Source of the DNA: Heterodontus francisci
Taxonomy: Eukaryota
Reading direction: 5' to 3'
DNA: 64,000 bases
Assembly (NCBI RefSeq): GCF_036365525.1
Contig: NC_090380.1
Location: 84,391,658 to 84,455,657 of the forward strand
Translations under genes and position numbers: made by a program
Part shown: positions 4,171-60,352 of the stretch, one piece after another
Numbering within the stretch: the first letter of the stretch is position 1
Layout of the letters: every line of letters begins with the position of its first letter
The notes under the pieces: model-generated
Database searches by the model: none
The model's input: the letters and a program-made list of their open reading frames with translations, nothing else
What the model was told of the DNA's origin: nothing

Positions 4171-4909
4171 ACTATATTATCTCCATGGAAGGAGTGAGTA
4201 GCTCATACAGTTGGAAGTTTAAAAGTACTATTGCACTTGTCTCATTCCTCAAGATTCGAATACCTAAAGCTTTGGTTTAAGGTTATTTTAGGAGAATGAT
4301 TTTAGGCATCACACAAACTCTTGGCTGATCAGCTAAAACAACACGACTATCAAGTCTGCAATTCCTTTCCCTCCACTAGTTGGGTGCATTTTCAGGATGC
4401 GTCTGGTATGCCTTAGGTCCACAAACGAAATGCACCCTTGACCTTAGTTAACTTTCCAACCACAAGGTCATGAATAAACTGAGGTGGGCTCCCCAGTCTC
4501 TACCAGGGAATCTTGACAAAATGAAGATGGAGTTCTGACACAGCAGGTCTCAGCCTATCACATTGTAGGAGTGCAGATAGACTCAGTACTGCCTATAAAA
4601 CGGGATATTTGTTCTTCAAAAATTGCGCTTTTCCTTCTTGGGTCTGTAGCAGGTTGTGCTAATTTAGTGATTACAGTGATGCAAGTGTCAGAGTAGCACT
4701 CTTGCCTCTGAGTCAAGAATTTTGAGCTTAAGCCCCATTTCTACACTTGAACAGATAACTTGGGTTAAGACTGTTGCTTTTCAGATGGAACGTTAAACCG
4801 CGGCACCCCTACTCTCTACAGTGAAATCAAAGGTCCCATGGAAGATAAGGAGGTCTCTCTGTGCCCTGGTCAACATTTATCCCTCAATCAACATCACTAA
4901 AATGGATTA

Positions 4910-6209
4910 TAAAAGCAAAATACTGCGGATGCTGGAAATCTGAAATAAAAACATGAAATGCTGGAACCACTCAGCAGGTCTGGCAGCATCTGTGGAAAGA
5001 GAAGCAGAGTTAACGTTTCGGGTCAGTGACCCTTCTTCGGAACTGGCAAATATTAGAAATGTCAAAGGTTATAAGCAAGTGAGGCGGGGGGTGGGGCAAG
5101 AGATAACAAAGGAGAAGGTGTAGATTGGACAAGGCCACATAGCTGACCAAAAGGTCATGGAGCAAAGGTAAACAATATGTTAATAGTGTGTTGAAAGACA
5201 AAGCATTAATACAGATAGGGTGTTAATGGAGGTTTACAACATGTTCTTTATTGCCACACTGGGAAACCTCCTGCTAAAGCATCAAATAGCAACACAGGCA
5301 GTGCACTCAGATATTCAGAAGCTAATGTAAACAAATGGCAATGGTATGGTGTGTAGTTGTGACTTGGTCGTACTTCTGTTTGTATGGCAGCTTTAAAAAA
5401 TCTGGATGCAACAGGTAACAACCAGTAATGAACTCCAGTGTTATACACTAACAGACCTGTATCCACCAGTACTGTACCCGTGTTATACACTCTCAGACCT
5501 GTATCCACCAGTACTGTACCCGTGTTATACACTAACAGACCTGTATCCACCAGTACTGTACCCGTGTTATACACCAACAGATCTGTACCCACCAGTACTG
5601 TACCCGTGTTATACACCAACAGATCTGTACCCACCAGTACTGTACCCATTTTATACACTATCAGACCTGTATCCACCAGTACTGTACCTGTGTTCTACAG
5701 TAACAGCCCTGTACCCTGGAGTTCATTACTGGTTGTTAACTGTTGCATCCAGATTTTTTAAAGCTGCCATACAAACAGAAGTACTACCAAGTCACAACTA
5801 CACACCATACCATTGCCATTTGTTTACATTAGCTTCTGAATATCTGAGTGCACTGCCTGTGTTGCTATTTGATGCTTTAGCAGGAGGTTTCCCAGTGTGG
5901 CAATAAAGAACATGTTGTAAACCTCCGTTAACACCCTATCTGTATTAATGCTTTGTCTTTCAACACACCATTAACATATTGTTTACCTTTGCTCTTTGAC
6001 CTTTTGGTCAGCTATGTGGCCTTGTCCAATCTACACCTTCTCCTTTGTTATCTCTTGCCCCACCCCCTGCCTCACTTGCTTATAACCTTTGACATTTCTA
6101 ATATTTGCCAGTTCCGAAGAAGGGTCACTGACCCCAAACGTTAACTCTGCTTCTCTTTCCACAGATGCTGCCAGACCTGCTGAGTGGTTCCAACATTTCT
6201 TGTTTTTAT
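4910..6209. mobile_element. 1.3-kb palindromic Penelope-derived insertion with captured cargo
   Basis: Inverted arms 4945-5438 / 5716-6209 nearly identical; 35-nt unpaired tail 4910-4944; TSD ATCACTAAAATGGATTA at 4893-4909 and 6210-6226; outer arm homologous to the Penelope 3' end at 19100-19670. Confidence 0.9.
5439..5715. repeat. 42-bp minisatellite, about 6.5 copies
   Basis: Unit TGTTATACACTAACAGACCTGTATCCACCAGTACTGTACCCG repeated; forms the loop of the palindrome. Confidence 0.95.
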
Positions 6210-6406
6210 ATCACTAAAATGGATTACCTGGTCAGTTACATCTTTGTTATTTGTGCAACCTTGATGTGTCCAAATTTAGGTATCACATTCCCATGCATTA
6301 CAACAGTAATTTTAACAGACAATTTCAAATGCACTTCATTGGCTGTGAAGCAATTTGAGATGTCCTGAAAATGTGAAAGGAGCTAAAGAAAATAAATTAT
6401 TTTCTT

Positions 6407-7549: not shown

Positions 7550-8337
7550 CTTTGGAAATAATGCCCTTCTTCTCCTATTAAGAGTTTCTGCTCATAACCT
7601 CCCATCATATGGTTGATACGCGCAGAGCAGGGGAGTTTTTCTGGTTTGTAACAGAACCAGGGCTCCCCAGTCCTGAGATCAGTAAAGTTACAGAGTGGTT
7701 TAGTTTGAGGCAAACAAAGATTACATACTGTGGTCTCAGAGGTATCTCCTGATTTGAAAGTACTTTTAAAATACACTCTCCCTGGCCATTCCTCACGTAG
7801 CCTTTGAAGTGCTTGAACCCCTTCACTGGGATGAACCAAGGAAACAGACACTTCAACTTTCCCTGGCCAAGATAAATTAAAATTTATCAAGTAAGATCCA
7901 TTTTGGTTATCTATAACTGTTCCTGCTGAACCAGCTTTTAAAGCTGGGGTGTGGATCCGGGCTTGGAGATAGTCACCACCATATTGCTTTGGGTGTCCTT
8001 CAAAATCATTCATTTGTAGCATCACTTGTAACTGATCTCCAACACAGAAAGTCTTTGCAAAATTTAAAATAACAAATCGAACATGTGATGGGTCACTGCT
8101 TTTCTGATAGGACACAGCAGGGTTTGGTGGTTTTGGCCATTCGATCATCTTCAAAAGGAATGTTCCCTCTGACCTTTCTTCAGGGGTGAAGCTGTGATTC
8201 TGGTAGCCACACCGCACCAATCTATGTGTCCATGGAACCCTCTTTAGCTCCATTTGTTGCTTCTTTGTGGAATTAAGCTTTGGAACTGGGTAAATCTGCC
8301 AATTTTGTTCAGCTCCATAGTTCGAATAGCTAGTGTA
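7550..8337 (-). CDS. NXPE3: NXPE3-like gene, second coding exon (788 nt; Ig-like/neurexophilin region)
   Basis: ccttttcacag|TAC...TTC CAA AG|gtatgt, open throughout; NXPE motifs VGDQLQV, DFEGHPKQYGGDYLQARIH, DNQNGSY, VSLVHPSEG, CNFTDLRTGEPWFCYKPEKLPC. Family is certain; exact paralogue is less so. Confidence 0.93.
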
Positions 8338-9545
8338 CTGTGAAAAGGAATAATATTTTTAATACTGTAAAAATGTTTTTTTATTTACAGTTCTTATTGG
8401 CTACTTTTCAATATATCACCTCCTTCAGTCAAGAAACCCCCTTCAGTTAATAAAGAAACAATGAAAGGTGCTTCTGAATAAAGATTTCTTCAGAGTTAAA
8501 GATCATTCCACTTCATGATTCAAGGGTGTACAGTTAAATACAACAGTCTGTATTCAATGTGTTACATTACCAATAGACAAAAAACATAGGCAGTGACCTC
8601 TGATTTCCTGATACGTGGTGCTGTTGTGGAGGTTCCCTGTCATCAGCATGAACTTGGATGATCAGCTTCACTCTGTCCTTCTCAGTGCCTTCCCTGGAAA
8701 TTTACTGCACAAGTTTATCATCCATTGCACTTGACTTCCCTTCTTAGATTTTATTTTTATAATGTGTACCTCTTCAGATTTGTGAACAGTTTGCCCAGAC
8801 CAACTTTTCAATTTTCTTCATAATCTTAAAGGCACTGAAATTATGTCATGGGATGGAAACATCTGAACACATAATGCTTTCTTTAACTTATTGCTGGTGT
8901 GCGAAACTAGTCTTGCAGGTCACCGCCCATTATGGAAACCATCCAATTTGATTTTCTAATGAAATTATTTCTGATGAATGCATTAGGCATTCACATTTTA
9001 TGTTCTATGATGTAATTTCCAGGCTGTAAACTTCAATTAGTGGAGCACAGTAAGGACCAGGGATTTTGCTGCCAGAACAGTGCATTAACTCAGTCTGCAT
9101 CACCAGTACGGTTATTAGAAAAATAAAATGAAATTTTAAAATGTAAGAAAAGATGCAACTGAATAACAATAATGTTATTGGTCCAGAATTTCCACTTCCC
9201 AAGGATGCCTTAAATTTGTTGAATGCCATATTGGCCAGGGTAATATTCACGCATCCTTGGCAGTCACCTTAAACAGGTGTTAGGCCACTGTATATGTTAG
9301 TGAAGCCTAACAATGCTTTAAGGACCCCTCTCTGAAATTGGTTAGAAACCGAGTGAATCAAACGCCAGCGTGGTCCACTCAGCTTTTCCAGTTCCTGAGG
9401 CAACCCGTGGCCTTTAAAGGCAGGTATTTTCTTTTAATTTACCTTAATGTGGTGACAGAGATACCAGGACTGCTCCCTCCATTCATCTTCTCTGTCTCCC
9501 AGGAGTTATCTGAGGGCCTTTGCTGACATGCAAATTTGTGAAGTG

Positions 9546-16520: not shown

Positions 16521-17784
16521 ACTCCAGCACCCCATTGCAAACTGCTGACTGCCCCAGAACCCTTGTCGCACTCATCCCATATTTACCTTGGGCCCATCCG
16601 GGACCTCTGTGCTGTCCAACATTCTGCCACTTCCCACTAAATTGTCGCACATTTTAGGTCAGTAAGCTGGCCAGTGACATGTCAATGAGGCACAGCTATT
16701 AAAATCTACTGGGCCTCCCACTGCTGCTCACCTGTGCATCTGTTAGGCTGCTTTCCCACCCAGGAGTTAAAATTCCCACCACTAGCTCTGGAAATCCACA
16801 GCTGTTTTGGCACATTCCCACTGTAATTTCTGTTGGACATAAGGCGCCAGGACTGGATTTATGTTAGGACCTAGTGTAGAATTGGCACAGGTAAGTCTTG
16901 TCTCACCAGGTGTACCTTCTTGACACCTAAAAAAAAAGCAGGACCCACAAGAAATCTGTGACTGGACCCCTGCAGATCCTACCTCTGGACTATGATCCAC
17001 CTACAGAACATCAAGCCATTGTATCCAGGACTATCACTGGCCTCATCTTCTCTAGAGATCTTCCCTTCATGGCCTTCAACCTCATAGTTCCCCAACCCCG
17101 TACAGCCCGCTTCAACCTCCTTCCCAAAATCCACAAACAAGACTGTCCTGGTAGATCGCTTGTTTCAGTCTGTTCCTGCCCCACTGAACTGATTTCTTCC
17201 TATCCTGACTCTATTTTTACTCCCCTTGCCCAGTTTCTTCCCACCTATATCAGTGACTCTTCCCATGCCCTCTGTCACTGCATCTGTTTTCAGTTTCCTG
17301 ATCCTTACTATCTCCTATTCACCATGGGCTTTCTGTCCCTCTACAACAGCATGGTCTAATAGCTCTCTGCTAGTGGAGGTTCAAACAATCACATCCACCA
17401 CCCCCTCCTCTGCCTGGCTGAACATGTTCTCACATTGAACAACTTCTTCTAAATAAATGGTGTTGCTATGGGTACCTTCATGGGTCCTAGCTATACCTGC
17501 CTTTTTGTAGGATATGTGGAACATTCCTCGTTCCAGTCCTACTCTGCCCCTCCCTCACCACTTCGTCCAGTACATTGATGACTGTATCGATGCCCACTTC
17601 CTGCTCTCACCCTGAAGTGGAAAATTTCATTGACTTTGTTTCCAATTTCCACCCTTCTCTCACCTTCACATGGTCCATCTCCGACTCTTCCCTTCCCTTC
17701 CTCGACTTTTCAGTTGCAATTTCTGGGGGTAGACTATCAACCAATATTCACGAGAGGCCCACAGATAACCACAGCTGTCTGGTT

Positions 17785-18280
17785 TAAAGGCTTGCTACCT
17801 GACCCGAACCCAACGACATGTGTCAGGTCCGGGTTGGGTCGGGTTGCTCTTCCAGGTCTGGCTTTTGGGCTCGGCTCGGGTCGGGCCAGGTCCCCGTCAG
17901 GCCAGAACTGGGTCGGGCTCGGTCCGGGTAGGACACACACGGTATTAATTGGGCTTGAAAGGTTGTTTAAAAAGATGAAGACTGGAGCCCAAAGTCAATG
18001 ATTGTTTGGTCATGAGTTAAACAGAAACCCTTGGAGTTGCGCCAAGACAGGTTGTGGCACACTGTACCAGTATCTGTATTGCTTAAAATAAGTCCTGACA
18101 GTGATCAAATTATATTTTTTGATATAAATACTGCATATTTTATAATAATTAATCACTCAGGACTTTCCTGGTCTCAGTTGCTCACTGGATAAACTTGCAG
18201 CAAGTATTTCAATCTGTAAAGCAGGAGTCTAGGTAATGTATAATGATATTTTCTGAGCCTTTGGGCAATTGCTGTGTTTC
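17785..18280. mobile_element. hAT-type non-autonomous fragment inserted in Penelope
   Basis: Starts TAAAGGCTTGCTACC with ACCCGA/TCGGG subterminal repeats, like 26854-29315; right TIR not found. Confidence 0.55.
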
Positions 18281-19159
18281 CCTTCCCTCCCAGAACCATG
18301 ATAGGGTTCCCCTTATATTCACCTTCCACTCCACCAGCCTCCATATTCAACAGATCATCCTCTATCATTTCCATCACCTCCAGCGTAATGCCACCCACAA
18401 ACACATCTCTCCCTCCCCTTTCAGCATTCCGAAGGGACTGTTCCCTCTGTGACACCCTGATCCATGCCTCAGTCAGCCCCAACACCTCCCCGCTCTCCTA
18501 TGGCACCTGCCCTTTTATCACTTCGCTCTTCACTGTCCAAGGCCCCAAACACTCCTTCCAAGTGAAACAGCAATTTACTTGTACTTCTTTCAATTTAGTA
18601 TACTGTAGTCACTGCTCACAATATGGTCTCTTCTACATTGCGGAGACTAAATGCAGACTGGGTGACTGCTTTGCAGAACACCTCCGTTCAGTCCGCAAGC
18701 GCAACCTCAAGTTTTCTGCTGCTTGTAATTTCAATTCTCCACCTTGCTCCCACACTGACCTTTCTGTCTTTGGCCTGCTGCAGTGTTCCAATAAAGCTCA
18801 ACACAAGCTCCAGAAACAGCACCTCATCTTTCGATGAGGTGCTTTACAGCCTTCAGGTCTCAACATTGAGTTCAATAAATTTAGATCATAACCTCTGCTC
18901 CCATTTTTTATTTTTTCATGTTTTTTTGATGATTCGTTTCCCCCTCCCGCACTTGCTTCTTTCTTAATCCCTTTAGTTTGTGTTAGGACAGCTGCTATCC
19001 AGATATTTACACCTCATCCAGACACAGCTTTTGTTTCTTTACTTGTCCCATTACCACTCCCCTTGACTATGTACCATGAAACATTTTGTCATTTAATCTC
19101 TCCTGCCCTCACCCTATCTCAGATCTTCCCTTTTGTTCTTCTTCCCCTCCCCCTTTCAC

Positions 19160-19503
19160 TTTTTTTTATTCATTCCTGGGATGTGGGCGTCGCTGGCCAG
19201 GCCAGCATTTATTATCCATCCATAATTGCCCTTGAGAAGGTGGTGGTGAGCTGCCTTCTTGAACTGCTACAGTCCATGTGAGGTAGGTACACCCACAATG
19301 CTATTAGAAGGGAGTTCCAGGATTTTGACCCAGCAACAGTAAAGGAACAGCGATATAGTTCCAAGTCAGGATGGTGTGTGGCTTGGAGGGGAACTTGCAG
19401 GTGGTTACCCATGCATCGTGTTCCCATGCATCTGCTGCCCTTGTCCTTCTAGGCGATAGAGGTCACGGGTTTGGAAGATGCTGTTGAAGGAGGCTTGGTG
19501 ATT
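19160..19503 (-). mobile_element. Family B LINE 3' fragment in the Penelope 3'UTR
   Basis: Family B tail and GSKSWNSL peptide. Confidence 0.85.
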
Positions 19504-19813
19504 TGCTCAAAACCTTTTACATTTCTAACTTTTCCCAGTTCTGATGAAAGGTCACACATACCTGAAATGTTTTTCTGTTTTTTCTCTCCACAGATGCTGC
19601 CTGACCACTGAGTATTTCCATCAATTTCTGTTTTTATTTCAGATTTACAGCTTCCACAGAATTTTGCTTGTGTTGTGTTGATGAGGACCCGACTAATCTT
19701 TTCTATTTGGAATGAGTATTTAATATGCATATCACATTTTTAATCACTGCCCCTTCAAGCTTTCTTTGGCATAACGGTTTACTTTGAACACATTGTTTAA
19801 TTACTCTACACAC

Positions 19814-35719: not shown

Positions 35720-35850
35720 AGTGGAATGTGCTGGGGTCACTCAGCAGGTCAGGCAGCATCTGTGGAGAGAGAAGCAGAGTTAACTTTCTGGTCTGTGAAC
35801 TTGGACAAGTTAACTCTGCTTCTCTCTCCACAGATTCTGCCTGACCTGCT
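35720..35850. mobile_element. Mini palindromic Penelope-end derivative
   Basis: Arms AGCAGGTCAGGCAGCATCTGTGGAGAGAGAAGCAGAGTTAAC and its reverse complement, with a spacer of about 24 nt. Confidence 0.8.
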
Positions 35851-36088
35851 GGATTCCTGCAGACTTTCTGCTTTGCTGCCAGATTGACAGCAGCCCCACT
35901 CTTCAGGTAAGTATTCTTTGACAGCTGTCAGGAAGCAGGTGCTGGGGTGCTTAAAATAGGGCCCCAGCACCTGCTGCACAACTGTCAAAAACTCTCGCTG
36001 CGCTGAATATCCCGCCTCTCCCCACGTAATATTGTGGGAGGGGGGGGCGGGAGGCGCGTGTCCTCAATGGAGATGAGCCCCCGCAATA

Positions 36089-37225: not shown

Positions 37226-37445
37226 TAAATAAAAGGAAAATACTGCGGATGCTGGAAATCTGAAATAAAAACAAGAAATGCTGGAAATACTCAGCAGGTC
37301 TGGCAGCATCTGTAGAGAGAGTAGAGTTAACATTTCAGGTCAGTGAAGTTCTGAAGAAGGGTCACTGACCTGAAACGTTAACTCTGCTTCTCTCTCCACA
37401 GATGTTGCCAGACCTGCCGAGTATTTCCAGCATTTCTTGTTTACA
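37226..37445. mobile_element. 220-bp palindromic Penelope-end insertion with hammerhead, inside the LTR
   Basis: TSD TTCCTTTCTTCAAA at 37212-37225 and 37446-37459; absent from the sister LTR near 46165; arms about 37269-37346 / 37362-37443. Confidence 0.92.
37347..37384 (+). ncRNA. Minimal hammerhead ribozyme motif
   Basis: AGTT-CTGAAGA-aggGTCACTGACCt-GAAA-CGTT-AACT. Confidence 0.65.
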
Positions 37446-48872: not shown

Positions 48873-48984
48873 AGAGATTGTCAGGGTTCTGAAGAAGGGT
48901 CACTGACCCGAAACGTTAACTCTGCTTCTCTTTCCACAGATGCTGCCAGACCTGCTGAGTGGTTCCAGCATTTCTTGTTTTTAC
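48873..48984 (+). mobile_element. 112-bp Penelope-end insertion
   Basis: TSD GTCAGAGTC at 48864-48872 and 48985-48993; same sequence as 6111-6208. Confidence 0.8.
48882..48924 (+). ncRNA. Minimal type I hammerhead ribozyme (Penelope type)
   Basis: Stem I CAGGGTT/AACTCTG, core CTGAAGA, stem II GGGTC-ACT-GACCC, GAAA, palindromic ACGT stem III, predicted cleavage after GTT (48917). Confidence 0.75.
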
Positions 48985-51534
48985 GTCAGAGTCCTATTGT
49001 CTAATTGACATTTGCCTCAGGCTCAAATGTCCCATTAAGTGCCAAGATCTTGTTTAAACCATGGGGTGGGAACATCCTGATATTCTTCATCTATTTTTAA
49101 ACTTCATTCAGTAGCTTTCCATCATGTCAAGACCATGGGGGTCATAAATTGGATTGGACAGTTTACGCAAGTCTTAGCCGTTGAGTTGGCAAACTTCCAG
49201 AAAAGGATATTTGCAGAAAAGATCAGCAGACTGCTGGGTCTCATGTTATCTCACTTTTGAAGAACCTTCAAAGTTTGTTTTCTCATTAATTCAAATAAAG
49301 ATGTTCCTTTTTGACTGCCAAATCTTTGTGTCTTCCCGATAGCATTGTCTAGTTTCACAGCTCAGCAAGTTCAGCAAATTCATTTTAACAGGCAGAAAAC
49401 AAGCACTTCAAGACTGTTCACAGTCTCTCAGGCATGACTTAATTTGGCCAAGCTTCAGAATTAATTCTTCTAGTAGTTTCTTTACTGTTCTACGTGAGTT
49501 GCACCAGTGTTGGATCAATGGAAAACATTTGCACCCACCAGTGGTCTGGAGTGGAATTTACATGAAGATCTTCTGGGTCATTTTATTTGACTAACCATTT
49601 GAGCAGCGACTCAACCAGTGCAAATCTTGTATTAAATAGCATTAATCTGGTGGCTACATGCAGCCTTTAAAAAGACAGTTCTGTTTCAATGTTTTAGCAA
49701 CAGACTGGAGGAAAACCACGAAAGGAACTGTTGAGTTATTGTCTTCTTCAGCAATTAAGTACCGAACAATCTTGAGTTGAAATGTAATCAAACAGTGGGT
49801 TCGTTATTATTAAGTAACAGGTTTACAAGAGAGCTTTATAATACACTTGCAACTAGGTGTCGAGCACAACTCCAACTGATCTATCATTTGTTGGTTAATG
49901 TCACTTCTTGTGATAATGTGTGAAGTACTCAGACTGCTAAAGTGTTATCACAAGATCCTTCTTTCCCAAAATGGAAATGCACAAAAGATAAACTATGTAC
50001 ATGATGAAAGAAAACAGTTTTGAGCGATATTTACATATGCACTGACTTTCAAGTCCTTCACTCAAGTGTCTCTAAAACGTACAGGTGGTCCACTGACTTG
50101 ACCTGATCTTGTCACTGTGCAGCTTGGTTGAGAACTAGACTTGTCTCTTGAACTGCCTGTGTGTTCTGACAGTCATCCTGTGCTTGAGCATTACACTTGT
50201 CACTTTTCTATGCTACTTTTTGTCAATTGGAATGTGAAAGTGTTCTCAACACAATAGTGTTGTCGGGCACAATGTTGTTAGCTAAGTCGACATTGGTTTC
50301 TCCTTAGTACTGCTCCATTAGGGGTGGCACCTTTATACCATCTTGGTTCAGTGCAGATTTTGGACACTTCCATGGGAATCCACGTTCCTTCCTGCGGATG
50401 GATCACTCGAGCTTCTGTTCAATCTGTAACGGTGATAGTTCCACGCCTGCGCGTTTGTGGGACACAGCTTTCATCTTCACTTGAATGTCTATCAGTTGAT
50501 CCTGTATTGACAAAGATTTCATGAAGTAATGACTTGGTAGAGTCATCTTAATCTGTCTTCCAAACATAACTCCCATAAGTGATCGTAATCCTGTGCCAAT
50601 TGGTGTTGCCCTTAAGTGTAACATGTCTACATGTCGATCTTGCTTTGTTTCTCAATACTTCACAATCAGAGATTTGACTGTGTGCATCATTGTTTCTGAT
50701 AGGCCGTTCAACCTAGGGTAATGTGATGAAGATGTGACATGGTTTACTGCCCATTTCTTAAACATATATTCAAACAGTTTGACATTATATTGCTGTCCTT
50801 TGTCCGATATTATCTCCTCCGAGGGCCAAACGAGCTGAATTATTGCGCTGCTAGTATTAGCAACTGATTGGCTCAACGTGTCCATCAACTGTCAGATTAT
50901 GGGCAACTTGGAGAAGTAATCTTTTAGCACGAAATAATTGTCATCTTTCATAGAGAAGAGATCAGTGGCAACACATGTCCAAGGATGAGATGGAATTGCA
51001 TGCAGGAGAAGTGGTTTTTTTTATGTTGGTTTGATTGATGCTTTTGACATGCATCACCTGACTGTACTGCTCTCTCAATGCCATTGTTAATTGCTGGCTA
51101 GTACACAGTTTCGCATGTGTGTTTTCTGGAGTTCTCTACATCCGTATGACCCAGGTGCAACTGCAAAAGAATGTCAAGGTGAGACGATTGTAGAATTAAC
51201 ACCTGCCTTCCCTTGAAGATCACGTCACTAGAAATGCCCAATTCAGCTTGGTATGGCCAAAAGATTATAAGTTCTGCAGGAACTTCTTGTATTGTGTCAG
51301 GCCATCTTTGACAATGAGTTGCCGTAGCTTCATTAAGACTGGGTTTCTGGAAGTTTCTTCTTGTAGTTCCTTGCTCTTCCTTTGTCGGACAACATCTTCC
51401 AGTTTCATGTCGACTTCGTCAACCTGGATGTCTAATGGGATGTCTTCACACTTTCTGAGATTGGGTAGCTGGCTAACGGTGTCTGAGGTCACCATAAGCT
51501 TCTCAGGCTTGCAGTTGACCTCATAGTCTTATCC

Positions 51535-60192: not shown

Positions 60193-60352
60193 TAAATGAA
60201 AACAGAAAATGCTAGAAATACTCAGCAGATCTTACCGACTGGAAACATTAACTCTGTTTTTCTCTCTCCACAGATGATGCCAGACCTGATGAGTATTTCC
60301 AGCATTTTCTGTTTCATTTCATATTTCCAACATCTGCACTATTTTGCTTTCT
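60193..60352. mobile_element. Older inverted Penelope-end derivative
   Basis: Short inverted arm AAATGAAAACAGAAAATGCTAGAAATACTCAGCAG followed by sense arm plus tail ...CATCTGCACTATTTTGCTTT. Confidence 0.75.

Follow-up and report, generated by a model that had tools for sequence, protein, structure and literature searches.

A palindromic insertion in an NXPE intron

How can an insertion that carries the 3' end of a Penelope-like retroelement at both of its outer ends be made up mostly of host sequence? The question is raised by positions 4910-6209 of the stretch of DNA that we analysed, 64,000 nucleotides of the genome of the shark Heterodontus francisci, which we refer to as the window. The insert consists of two inverted arms of 494 bp each (arm 1, 4945-5438; arm 2, 5716-6209), with 10 substitutions between them, around a minisatellite loop (42-bp units, 6.9 copies in 277 bp). 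It is flanked by a 17-bp target site duplication (TSD), ATCACTAAAATGGATTA, the two copies of which (4893-4909 and 6210-6226) are 100% identical. The features are listed here; the donor is the locus on contig C1171 described in the following section.

4893-4909, no strand: left TSD copy, 17 bp, within an old interspersed repeat
4910-4944, minus strand: Penelope "tail", 35 nt, unpaired, at the outer element end on the arm 1 side only; a one-sided tail is also found in family pairs
4945-5230, minus strand: Penelope 3' end (pLTR region) of arm 1, apparently copied from the donor stub (C1171:3297-3620), with a shared 1-bp insertion
5007-5044, minus strand: hammerhead-like motif of arm 1, read from sequence; minimal, core CCGAAGA, GAAAC box intact
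5229-5242, minus strand: upstream copy of the donor's 14-bp TSD, carried in arm 1
5231-5438, minus strand: cargo of arm 1, assigned to CYP20A1 intron 1 (C1171:3089-3296)
5439-5715, minus strand: loop, 277 bp, the donor intron's 42-bp minisatellite in its full span, with the near-end unit at one edge and the degenerate far-end unit at the other
5716-5923, plus strand: cargo of arm 2, a second copy of the sequence assigned to CYP20A1 intron 1, with an incidental AATAAA at 5902-5907
5912-5925, plus strand: arm 2 counterpart of 5229-5242, the donor's upstream 14-bp TSD copy; its last 2 nt overlap the Penelope start
5924-6209, plus strand: Penelope 3' end of arm 2, without tail
6110-6147, plus strand: hammerhead-like motif of arm 2, with a private G-to-C change at 6135 in the GAAAC box
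6210-6226, no strand: right TSD copy, 17 bp
7550-8358, minus strand: open frame that includes the neurexophilin-domain exon of NXPE upstream of the host intron

The target was an old interspersed repeat, which the insert splits. In six of the seven homologous repeat copies that match both flanks, the flanks overlap by exactly 17 nt (by 15 nt in the other one); the 17-mer is single at these homologous empty sites, and the 17-bp repeat is thus a true TSD. Coordinates and arm alignment bear out the layout described in a first-pass annotation of this DNA (TSD of 17 bp, tail of 35 nt, arms of ~494 bp, minisatellite loop of 277 bp), and the AATAAA that it recorded lies where it had been placed. The annotation was also right to locate the insert in an NXPE intron: a Neurexophilin exon on the minus strand ends at 7550 (Pfam PF06312, E=1.4e-40), with a splice donor at that point. 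Two more exon-like ORFs in adjoining stretches (L109 and L110) may be NXPE exons as well, judging from their motifs. Computed as RNA, the insert folds into a long duplex with -1038 kcal/mol and perfect pairing over up to 141 bp, and the prediction that NXPE pre-mRNA would form dsRNA is sound in silico. The insert is a real, single insertion, most likely both dead-end and neutral.

Cargo and loop match a single donor locus

A search of the genome DNA with the 208-bp cargo yielded one match outside the window, at G000:C1171:3089-3295 (99% identical). On this contig the minisatellite, the cargo and the Penelope end are contiguous and in the same order, with 95.7% identity over 811 bp (window 5716 to 4906). 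The minisatellite is equally restricted: all 11 occurrences of its 34-nt core unit are at the donor or in the window, and the degenerate far-end unit occurs exactly twice in 6.0 Gb, once in each. The degenerate unit with which the window loop finishes has its match at the far end of the donor array, and the loop therefore spans this array from end to end. There are 7 units in the window compared to about 37 at the donor today, and the order of units is not colinear; at least one of the arrays has therefore turned over since the insertion, so that today's array length does not give the length at the time of the event. A search with the donor sequence upstream of the array found nothing in the genome beyond the donor itself and old repeats.

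The Penelope sequence at the donor is a 324-bp 5'-truncated end (C1171:3297-3620), which we refer to as the stub, with its own 14-bp TSD (one mismatch). Both copies of this TSD are present at the donor and only the upstream copy is present in each arm of the window insert, which gives the direction of transfer from donor to window, with the stub inserted first and the window insert made later. At the position of the mismatch, the arms have the base of the donor's downstream copy. A 1-bp insertion ~140 nt from the arm end is common to the donor and both arms and is found in none of the 28 other fetched copies of the family. One derived change is shared by the arms and absent from the donor, and private changes are present on each arm and on the donor. 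Over the 494 bp, arm 1 and arm 2 differ from the donor by 7 and 8 substitutions, compared to the 10 between the arms; set against 3.3% between family copies, these differences place the event within the family's recent burst.

These results alter the earlier interpretation of the cargo, which had been taken for an mRNA 3' end on account of the AATAAA and its position near the junction with Penelope sequence. That junction is the insertion junction of the stub, and the 14 nt from 5912 are the donor TSD; the resemblance to an mRNA end is thus due to chance. Likewise, where the annotation expected the search with 5716-5923 to find a donor 3'UTR, the donor appears to be intron 1 of CYP20A1, and a count of other loci with the same fusion, which it had also suggested, found the donor and the window only. 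Since the fusion of cargo, array and Penelope end is confined to these two loci, there is no dispersed non-autonomous composite family, with the proviso that DNA searches for fusion copies give lower bounds. We rejected three other readings. A processed retrocopy of an mRNA 3' end does not fit with cargo that is intronic and a donor that continues past the stub. The upstream part of a Penelope consensus is not the source of the cargo either, as 28 of 28 other copies differ from it, and cargo and loop are unmatched in four long copies. Finally, we considered that the cargo might be a coding last exon, based on a frame through loop and cargo, but the 56-aa end of this frame has no Pfam hit and the donor shows an intron. 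The minisatellite at the donor (L004:1531-3279) contains long open frames, of 582 and 529 codons, on its two strands, the plus-strand one of which enters the cargo; they are probably a by-product of the 42-nt period.

The donor was assigned to a gene from the exons around it. Exon 5, downstream of the stub, matches proteins named CYP20A1 at up to 98%, with a protein labelled Heterodontus francisci as the best match. When a full-length shark protein is aligned to the genome, the downstream exons fall on the C1171 plus strand and exon 1 falls on contig C7; exon 2 is read at C1171:3919-3968, and an assembly gap starts 58 nt after exon 1 on C7. On this evidence, we place the array, cargo and stub in CYP20A1 intron 1, with the stub in sense orientation ~300 nt before exon 2; the position of C1171 behind exon 1 is a placement by exon order and gap, not by spanning sequence. 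Exon 1 lies at G000:C7:114330088-114330218 and is followed by the N gap; the rest of the gene is on the small unplaced contig C1171, which probably fills this gap. The best-matching named protein (P0001) does not have the first 34 residues of other shark proteins.

The family that supplies the ends

We characterized the Penelope family from 30 loci fetched with the stub, out of 40 scored and 1922 candidates, a set that is biased to donor-like copies. All 28 copies other than the donor and the window run upstream into family sequence. Among the 30 loci the hammerhead core is CCGAAGA in 22 (including donor and window), CTGAAGA in two and different in four, with two unparsed; the CCGAAGA core, which had been noted as a mutation of this copy, is thus the family state. 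Minimal type I hammerheads of Penelope-like elements are defined by helices I and II and a core of CUGANGA and GAAA-NUH. Helices I and II of the hammerhead-like motif fold, with a z of about 0, and the U-to-C change in the core is family-wide. Rfam gave no hammerhead hit at the gathering score in the whole window; minimal hammerheads with low activity have been described (PMC4209133).

Two longer copies (L042 and L044) have a single frame with a reverse transcriptase followed by a C-terminal GIY-YIG endonuclease. Atlas matches of the family frame reach 0.95 to HTH_animal/RVT_1/GIY-YIG clusters; the GIY-YIG Pfam match of this frame (E=0.0011) is below the curated cut-off, Pfam RVT_1 has no match in it, and a PDB sequence search with it returned nothing meaningful. 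In the family translations we read a DKG motif and a CCHH motif, the two cysteines of which lie between GIY and YIG, and both longer copies have CX4CxxC before the endonuclease, which fits the CX2-5CxxC linker motif of Neptune/Nematis elements. By these motifs, the family would be Neptune/Nematis-like (PMC8557442). Its insertions have what is expected of endonuclease-positive (EN+) Penelope-like elements, namely an inverted 5'-truncated copy, a one-sided tail of 30-40 nt and a TSD, and the outer ends and TSD size of the window insert are those of the family.

Other Penelope sequences were seen in passing. Nine equally scoring copies of the stub region lie on one contig (G000:C40:22.8-34.4 Mb), which suggests segmental amplification. 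In the window, decayed frames of the Penelope-type reverse transcriptase and GIY-YIG type at 16931-19669 have no Pfam hit and are followed by a related 3' end, and there are more short Penelope ends at 35729-35898, 37229-37442, 48886-48990 and 60234-60350, the first two of which are head-to-head pairs without cargo.

Family pairs seldom carry cargo and are often asymmetric

To survey head-to-head pairs of the family, we searched for the tail-less end with two patterns, which match 2595 and 3482 places in the genome, and took the first 30 loci on contig C1 for each (60 loci, L049-L108). A tailed arm was present within 1.5 kb at 33 of the 60 loci, one of which (L066) was dropped as two separate insertions, leaving 32 pairs. 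None of these 32 pairs has non-family sequence in both arms, within the 1.5-kb range of the survey, beyond which cargo falls outside. Thus, host capture is uncommon, and more cases are likely among the thousands of ends.

For the comparison of arm lengths, we left out L101, in which a later 260-bp insertion lies inside one arm. Of the 31 plain pairs compared, 17 have symmetric arms, 12 have a tail-less arm that exceeds the tailed one in reach by more than 15 nt, and two have a longer tailed arm; the tail-less arm likewise reaches further in L024 and L031. The 5' edge of the hammerhead, ~100 nt from the arm end, is the stopping point of the tail-less arm in 19 of 32 plain pairs, and several solo copies among L049-L108 also stop there; this edge is probably the element's own start site. 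In six other pairs, rare variants common to both arms occurred at 36 of 3384 sites, compared to 63 of 39815 between pairs (~7-fold). The arms overlap at their junction by 1 nt in the window insert versus 3-5 nt in three family pairs.

Several loci deserve separate mention. L089 and L090, 8.6 kb apart, have an identical insert layout and probably arose by local duplication, so that the pairs are not fully independent. L058 has tail sequence and 90 nt before a pLTR piece inside one TSD, perhaps a permuted tandem, and L063 has a 55-nt stretch, not assigned to the family, inside a weak TSD. At L036 (G000:C13:93909058-93912381), within a 13-bp TSD, a tail-less arm of 26 nt is followed by an inverted 470-bp copy of flanking sequence (98.9% identical), the source of which lies ~720-1190 nt beyond the insert. 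By its sequence, we read L036 as a template jump to local sequence, one among 28 family loci, which indicates that the enzyme can switch templates.

Probable copying of unspliced CYP20A1 RNA through a dead stub

We consider it highly probable, from the sequence relationships set out here, that the insert was copied from unspliced CYP20A1 RNA by a Penelope enzyme acting in trans, with the dead intronic stub as its point of entry. The earlier step is seen in the sequence: a 324-bp Penelope end inserted in sense in intron 1, with a 14-bp TSD. Transcription of the host gene would then have produced an RNA that reads through the minisatellite, the unique intron sequence and the stub. Germline expression of CYP20A1 in this shark is assumed by analogy with zebrafish (PMC8669017). 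A protein with reverse transcriptase and GIY-YIG domains may have bound the stub and cleaved its target in the NXPE intron on both strands, with 17 nt between the cuts, as the in vitro activity suggests (PMC11167929), and cDNA synthesis would have started at two internal sites 35 nt apart, at which the RNA 3' end is not needed (PMC11167929). The tailed cDNA, to go by the sequence that it left, would have run through the cargo and the entire minisatellite, and the tail-less cDNA would have stopped at the near edge of the minisatellite, after which the two would have been joined head to head with 1 nt of overlap. Since the copy runs through the hammerhead motif, the hammerhead of the template RNA was not cut. 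That the arms end at the edges of the array is something for which this model offers no explanation.

This reading draws on work with an anole Penelope protein, which is reported to cut and extend both strands, to start reverse transcription inside the RNA at two sites that bound the tail, and not to require hammerhead cleavage (PMC11167929). If initiation is internal and RNA cleavage is dispensable, a host RNA with a stub in sense orientation can be a template, and the predicted product is what is found in the window, with outer ends at the two family starts and a copy that proceeds through the hammerhead into the intron. The in vitro model belongs to the Penelope/Poseidon clade, in contrast to the Neptune/Nematis-like family here. 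The template of the insert reached ~670 nt further upstream than the hammerhead 5' edge, so that an upstream promoter is needed, and that of CYP20A1 is the one at hand; the donor lies in sense in intron 1, and this host promoter may have supplied the RNA. The upstream flank of the identified source element sits inside the new TSD, and the insert is by analogy a 5' transduction, functionally comparable to those of SVA (PMC12593883; PMC6431247). The annotation's proposal of one Penelope-type insertion, by which host sequence was moved in trans, is supported.

For the second arm, we favor two primings on the same RNA source, which we regard as probable. In the family at large, the 12 of 31 pairs with unique sequence in each arm point to two primings as a general route, since fold-back of one cDNA cannot yield an arm with a tail that its template lacked. 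Moreover, single-copy cargo in both arms implies one source, as two independent draws from thousands of copies rarely match; two primings on one RNA molecule or at one transcription site are the simplest reading. The shared rare variants within pairs also indicate one source per pair, to which later gene conversion could have contributed. Fold-back on the first cDNA, on the other hand, is geometrically possible in the window, where the tailed arm contains everything, and we regard it as a less likely origin of this second arm. The derived base that the arms share and the donor lacks fits an early error followed by fold-back, a different donor allele or conversion between arms. More tentatively, we propose that a Penelope dimer may prime both cut strands from one RNA, in which case any sense intronic pLTR stub would make a pre-mRNA its substrate.

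Alternative explanations

The same donor could also have been copied in the opposite sense, if transcription from the pLTR of the stub itself gave an antisense RNA that ran to the far edge of the minisatellite and there primed itself. Self-priming on an antisense template has been argued for rotifer Penelope elements (PMC3846280), and it would account for the turn at the array edge and for a head-to-head palindrome that contains intron sequence. We nevertheless think it unlikely, because the Penelope protein examined in vitro starts on sense RNA at two tail-matching sites (PMC11167929), such RNA would be available from the host gene, the overlap at the turn is only 1 nt, and the 12 of 31 pairs with unique sequence in either arm are beyond what one fold-back can produce. 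Synthesis might instead have started on family RNA and switched, by homology, to RNA or DNA of the donor; alternatively, donor DNA might have been used to patch a break. The family does jump templates, as at L036, but a jump to one and the same distant single-copy locus would be needed for each of the arms, and the donor-private insertion is in both arms ~140 nt from the arm end; a DNA-repair patch would not give family start sites at both outer ends together with a family-sized TSD. We regard this route as similarly unlikely.

The annotation had favored a model in which the enzyme switched between three RNAs, one of Penelope, one providing an mRNA 3' end and one from a separate minisatellite; the AATAAA 16 nt before the junction spoke for it. 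We give this almost no credence: the three parts are contiguous at one donor, so that switching is unneeded, the junction lies at an intronic insertion site with TSD copies on both sides, and the minisatellite variants occur only at the donor and in the window. It might finally be asked if the palindrome is an assembly fold-back or chimera, since the donor is on a small unplaced contig and the evidence comes from assembled sequence only. The sequence itself argues against such an artefact, which we consider highly improbable, as the exact 17-bp TSD is single in the homologous empty sites, the arms have 10 differences between them, each arm as well as the donor has changes of its own, and many family loci have the same architecture. 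The reading that we prefer remains copying in trans from unspliced CYP20A1 RNA.

Relation to known systems and implications

The closest precedent is in the rotifer Adineta vaga, in which Penelope is reported to move intron-containing host DNA as cargo between two pLTRs; its authors favored an antisense template and left a sense unspliced template open (PMC3846280). The Pen3a_Av insertion with an NRPS gene is like the shark insert in having intron-type host DNA that was mobilized in trans and no element sequence other than pLTRs, and the family architecture there similarly includes a TSD and an inverted pLTR with a one-sided tail (PMC3846280). In contrast, the cargo of Pen3a_Av is bounded by a pair of direct pLTRs, accompanied by a short inverted one, and that account resolves neither a donor stub nor the template strand (PMC3846280), whereas a donor with its older TSD is identified here. 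The shark insert further differs in that one downstream sense intronic stub is the handle, the cargo is in both arms, and the host is a vertebrate. Insertions of EN+ Penelope-like elements resemble it in their inverted 5'-truncated copy, 30-40-bp tail and pLTR hammerhead, as well as in the Neptune/Nematis-type linker zinc finger of the longer copies (PMC8557442), but the shark arms and loop are mostly host intron, not element sequence. The anole Poseidon protein likewise has two starts separated by the tail, cuts and extends both strands and uses uncut RNA; that work, as cited here, is in vitro, on another clade and with element RNA only, and leaves the inverted arm unaccounted for (PMC11167929). 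In a literature word search, to which subscription journals and supplements were outside the scope, we found no vertebrate Penelope 5' transduction via a single intronic stub.

SVA and L1 prime on the poly(A) end of processed RNA, whereas the shark insert has no poly(A), its source is a dead intronic stub and its product is a head-to-head pair. What the systems have in common is that an upstream host promoter supplies the flank 5' of the source element, as described for SVA and L1 5' transduction (PMC12593883).

The insert bears on a step of Penelope transposition that is stated as open in published accounts, namely the way in which the inverted copy is made and the use of sense or antisense RNA (PMC3846280; PMC8557442). 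Such an insert is what internal initiation would be expected to produce in vivo, and the host tag in both arms together with the mapped donor indicates one source locus for both arms and an uncut hammerhead. This is one event with noncoding cargo and no sign of function, of a type that is rare in the sample, and it represents a way to seed introns and minisatellites at new vertebrate loci. If our explanation is true, dead intronic Penelope stubs could be handles for moving host DNA. Under the more tentative dimer reading, the thousands of stubs in this genome would provide for a poly(A)-independent, intron-retaining duplication of host intron, exon and minisatellite sequence as long palindromes in sharks. 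Cargo-tagged inserts would then also be natural barcodes with which to resolve how Penelope inverted repeats form.
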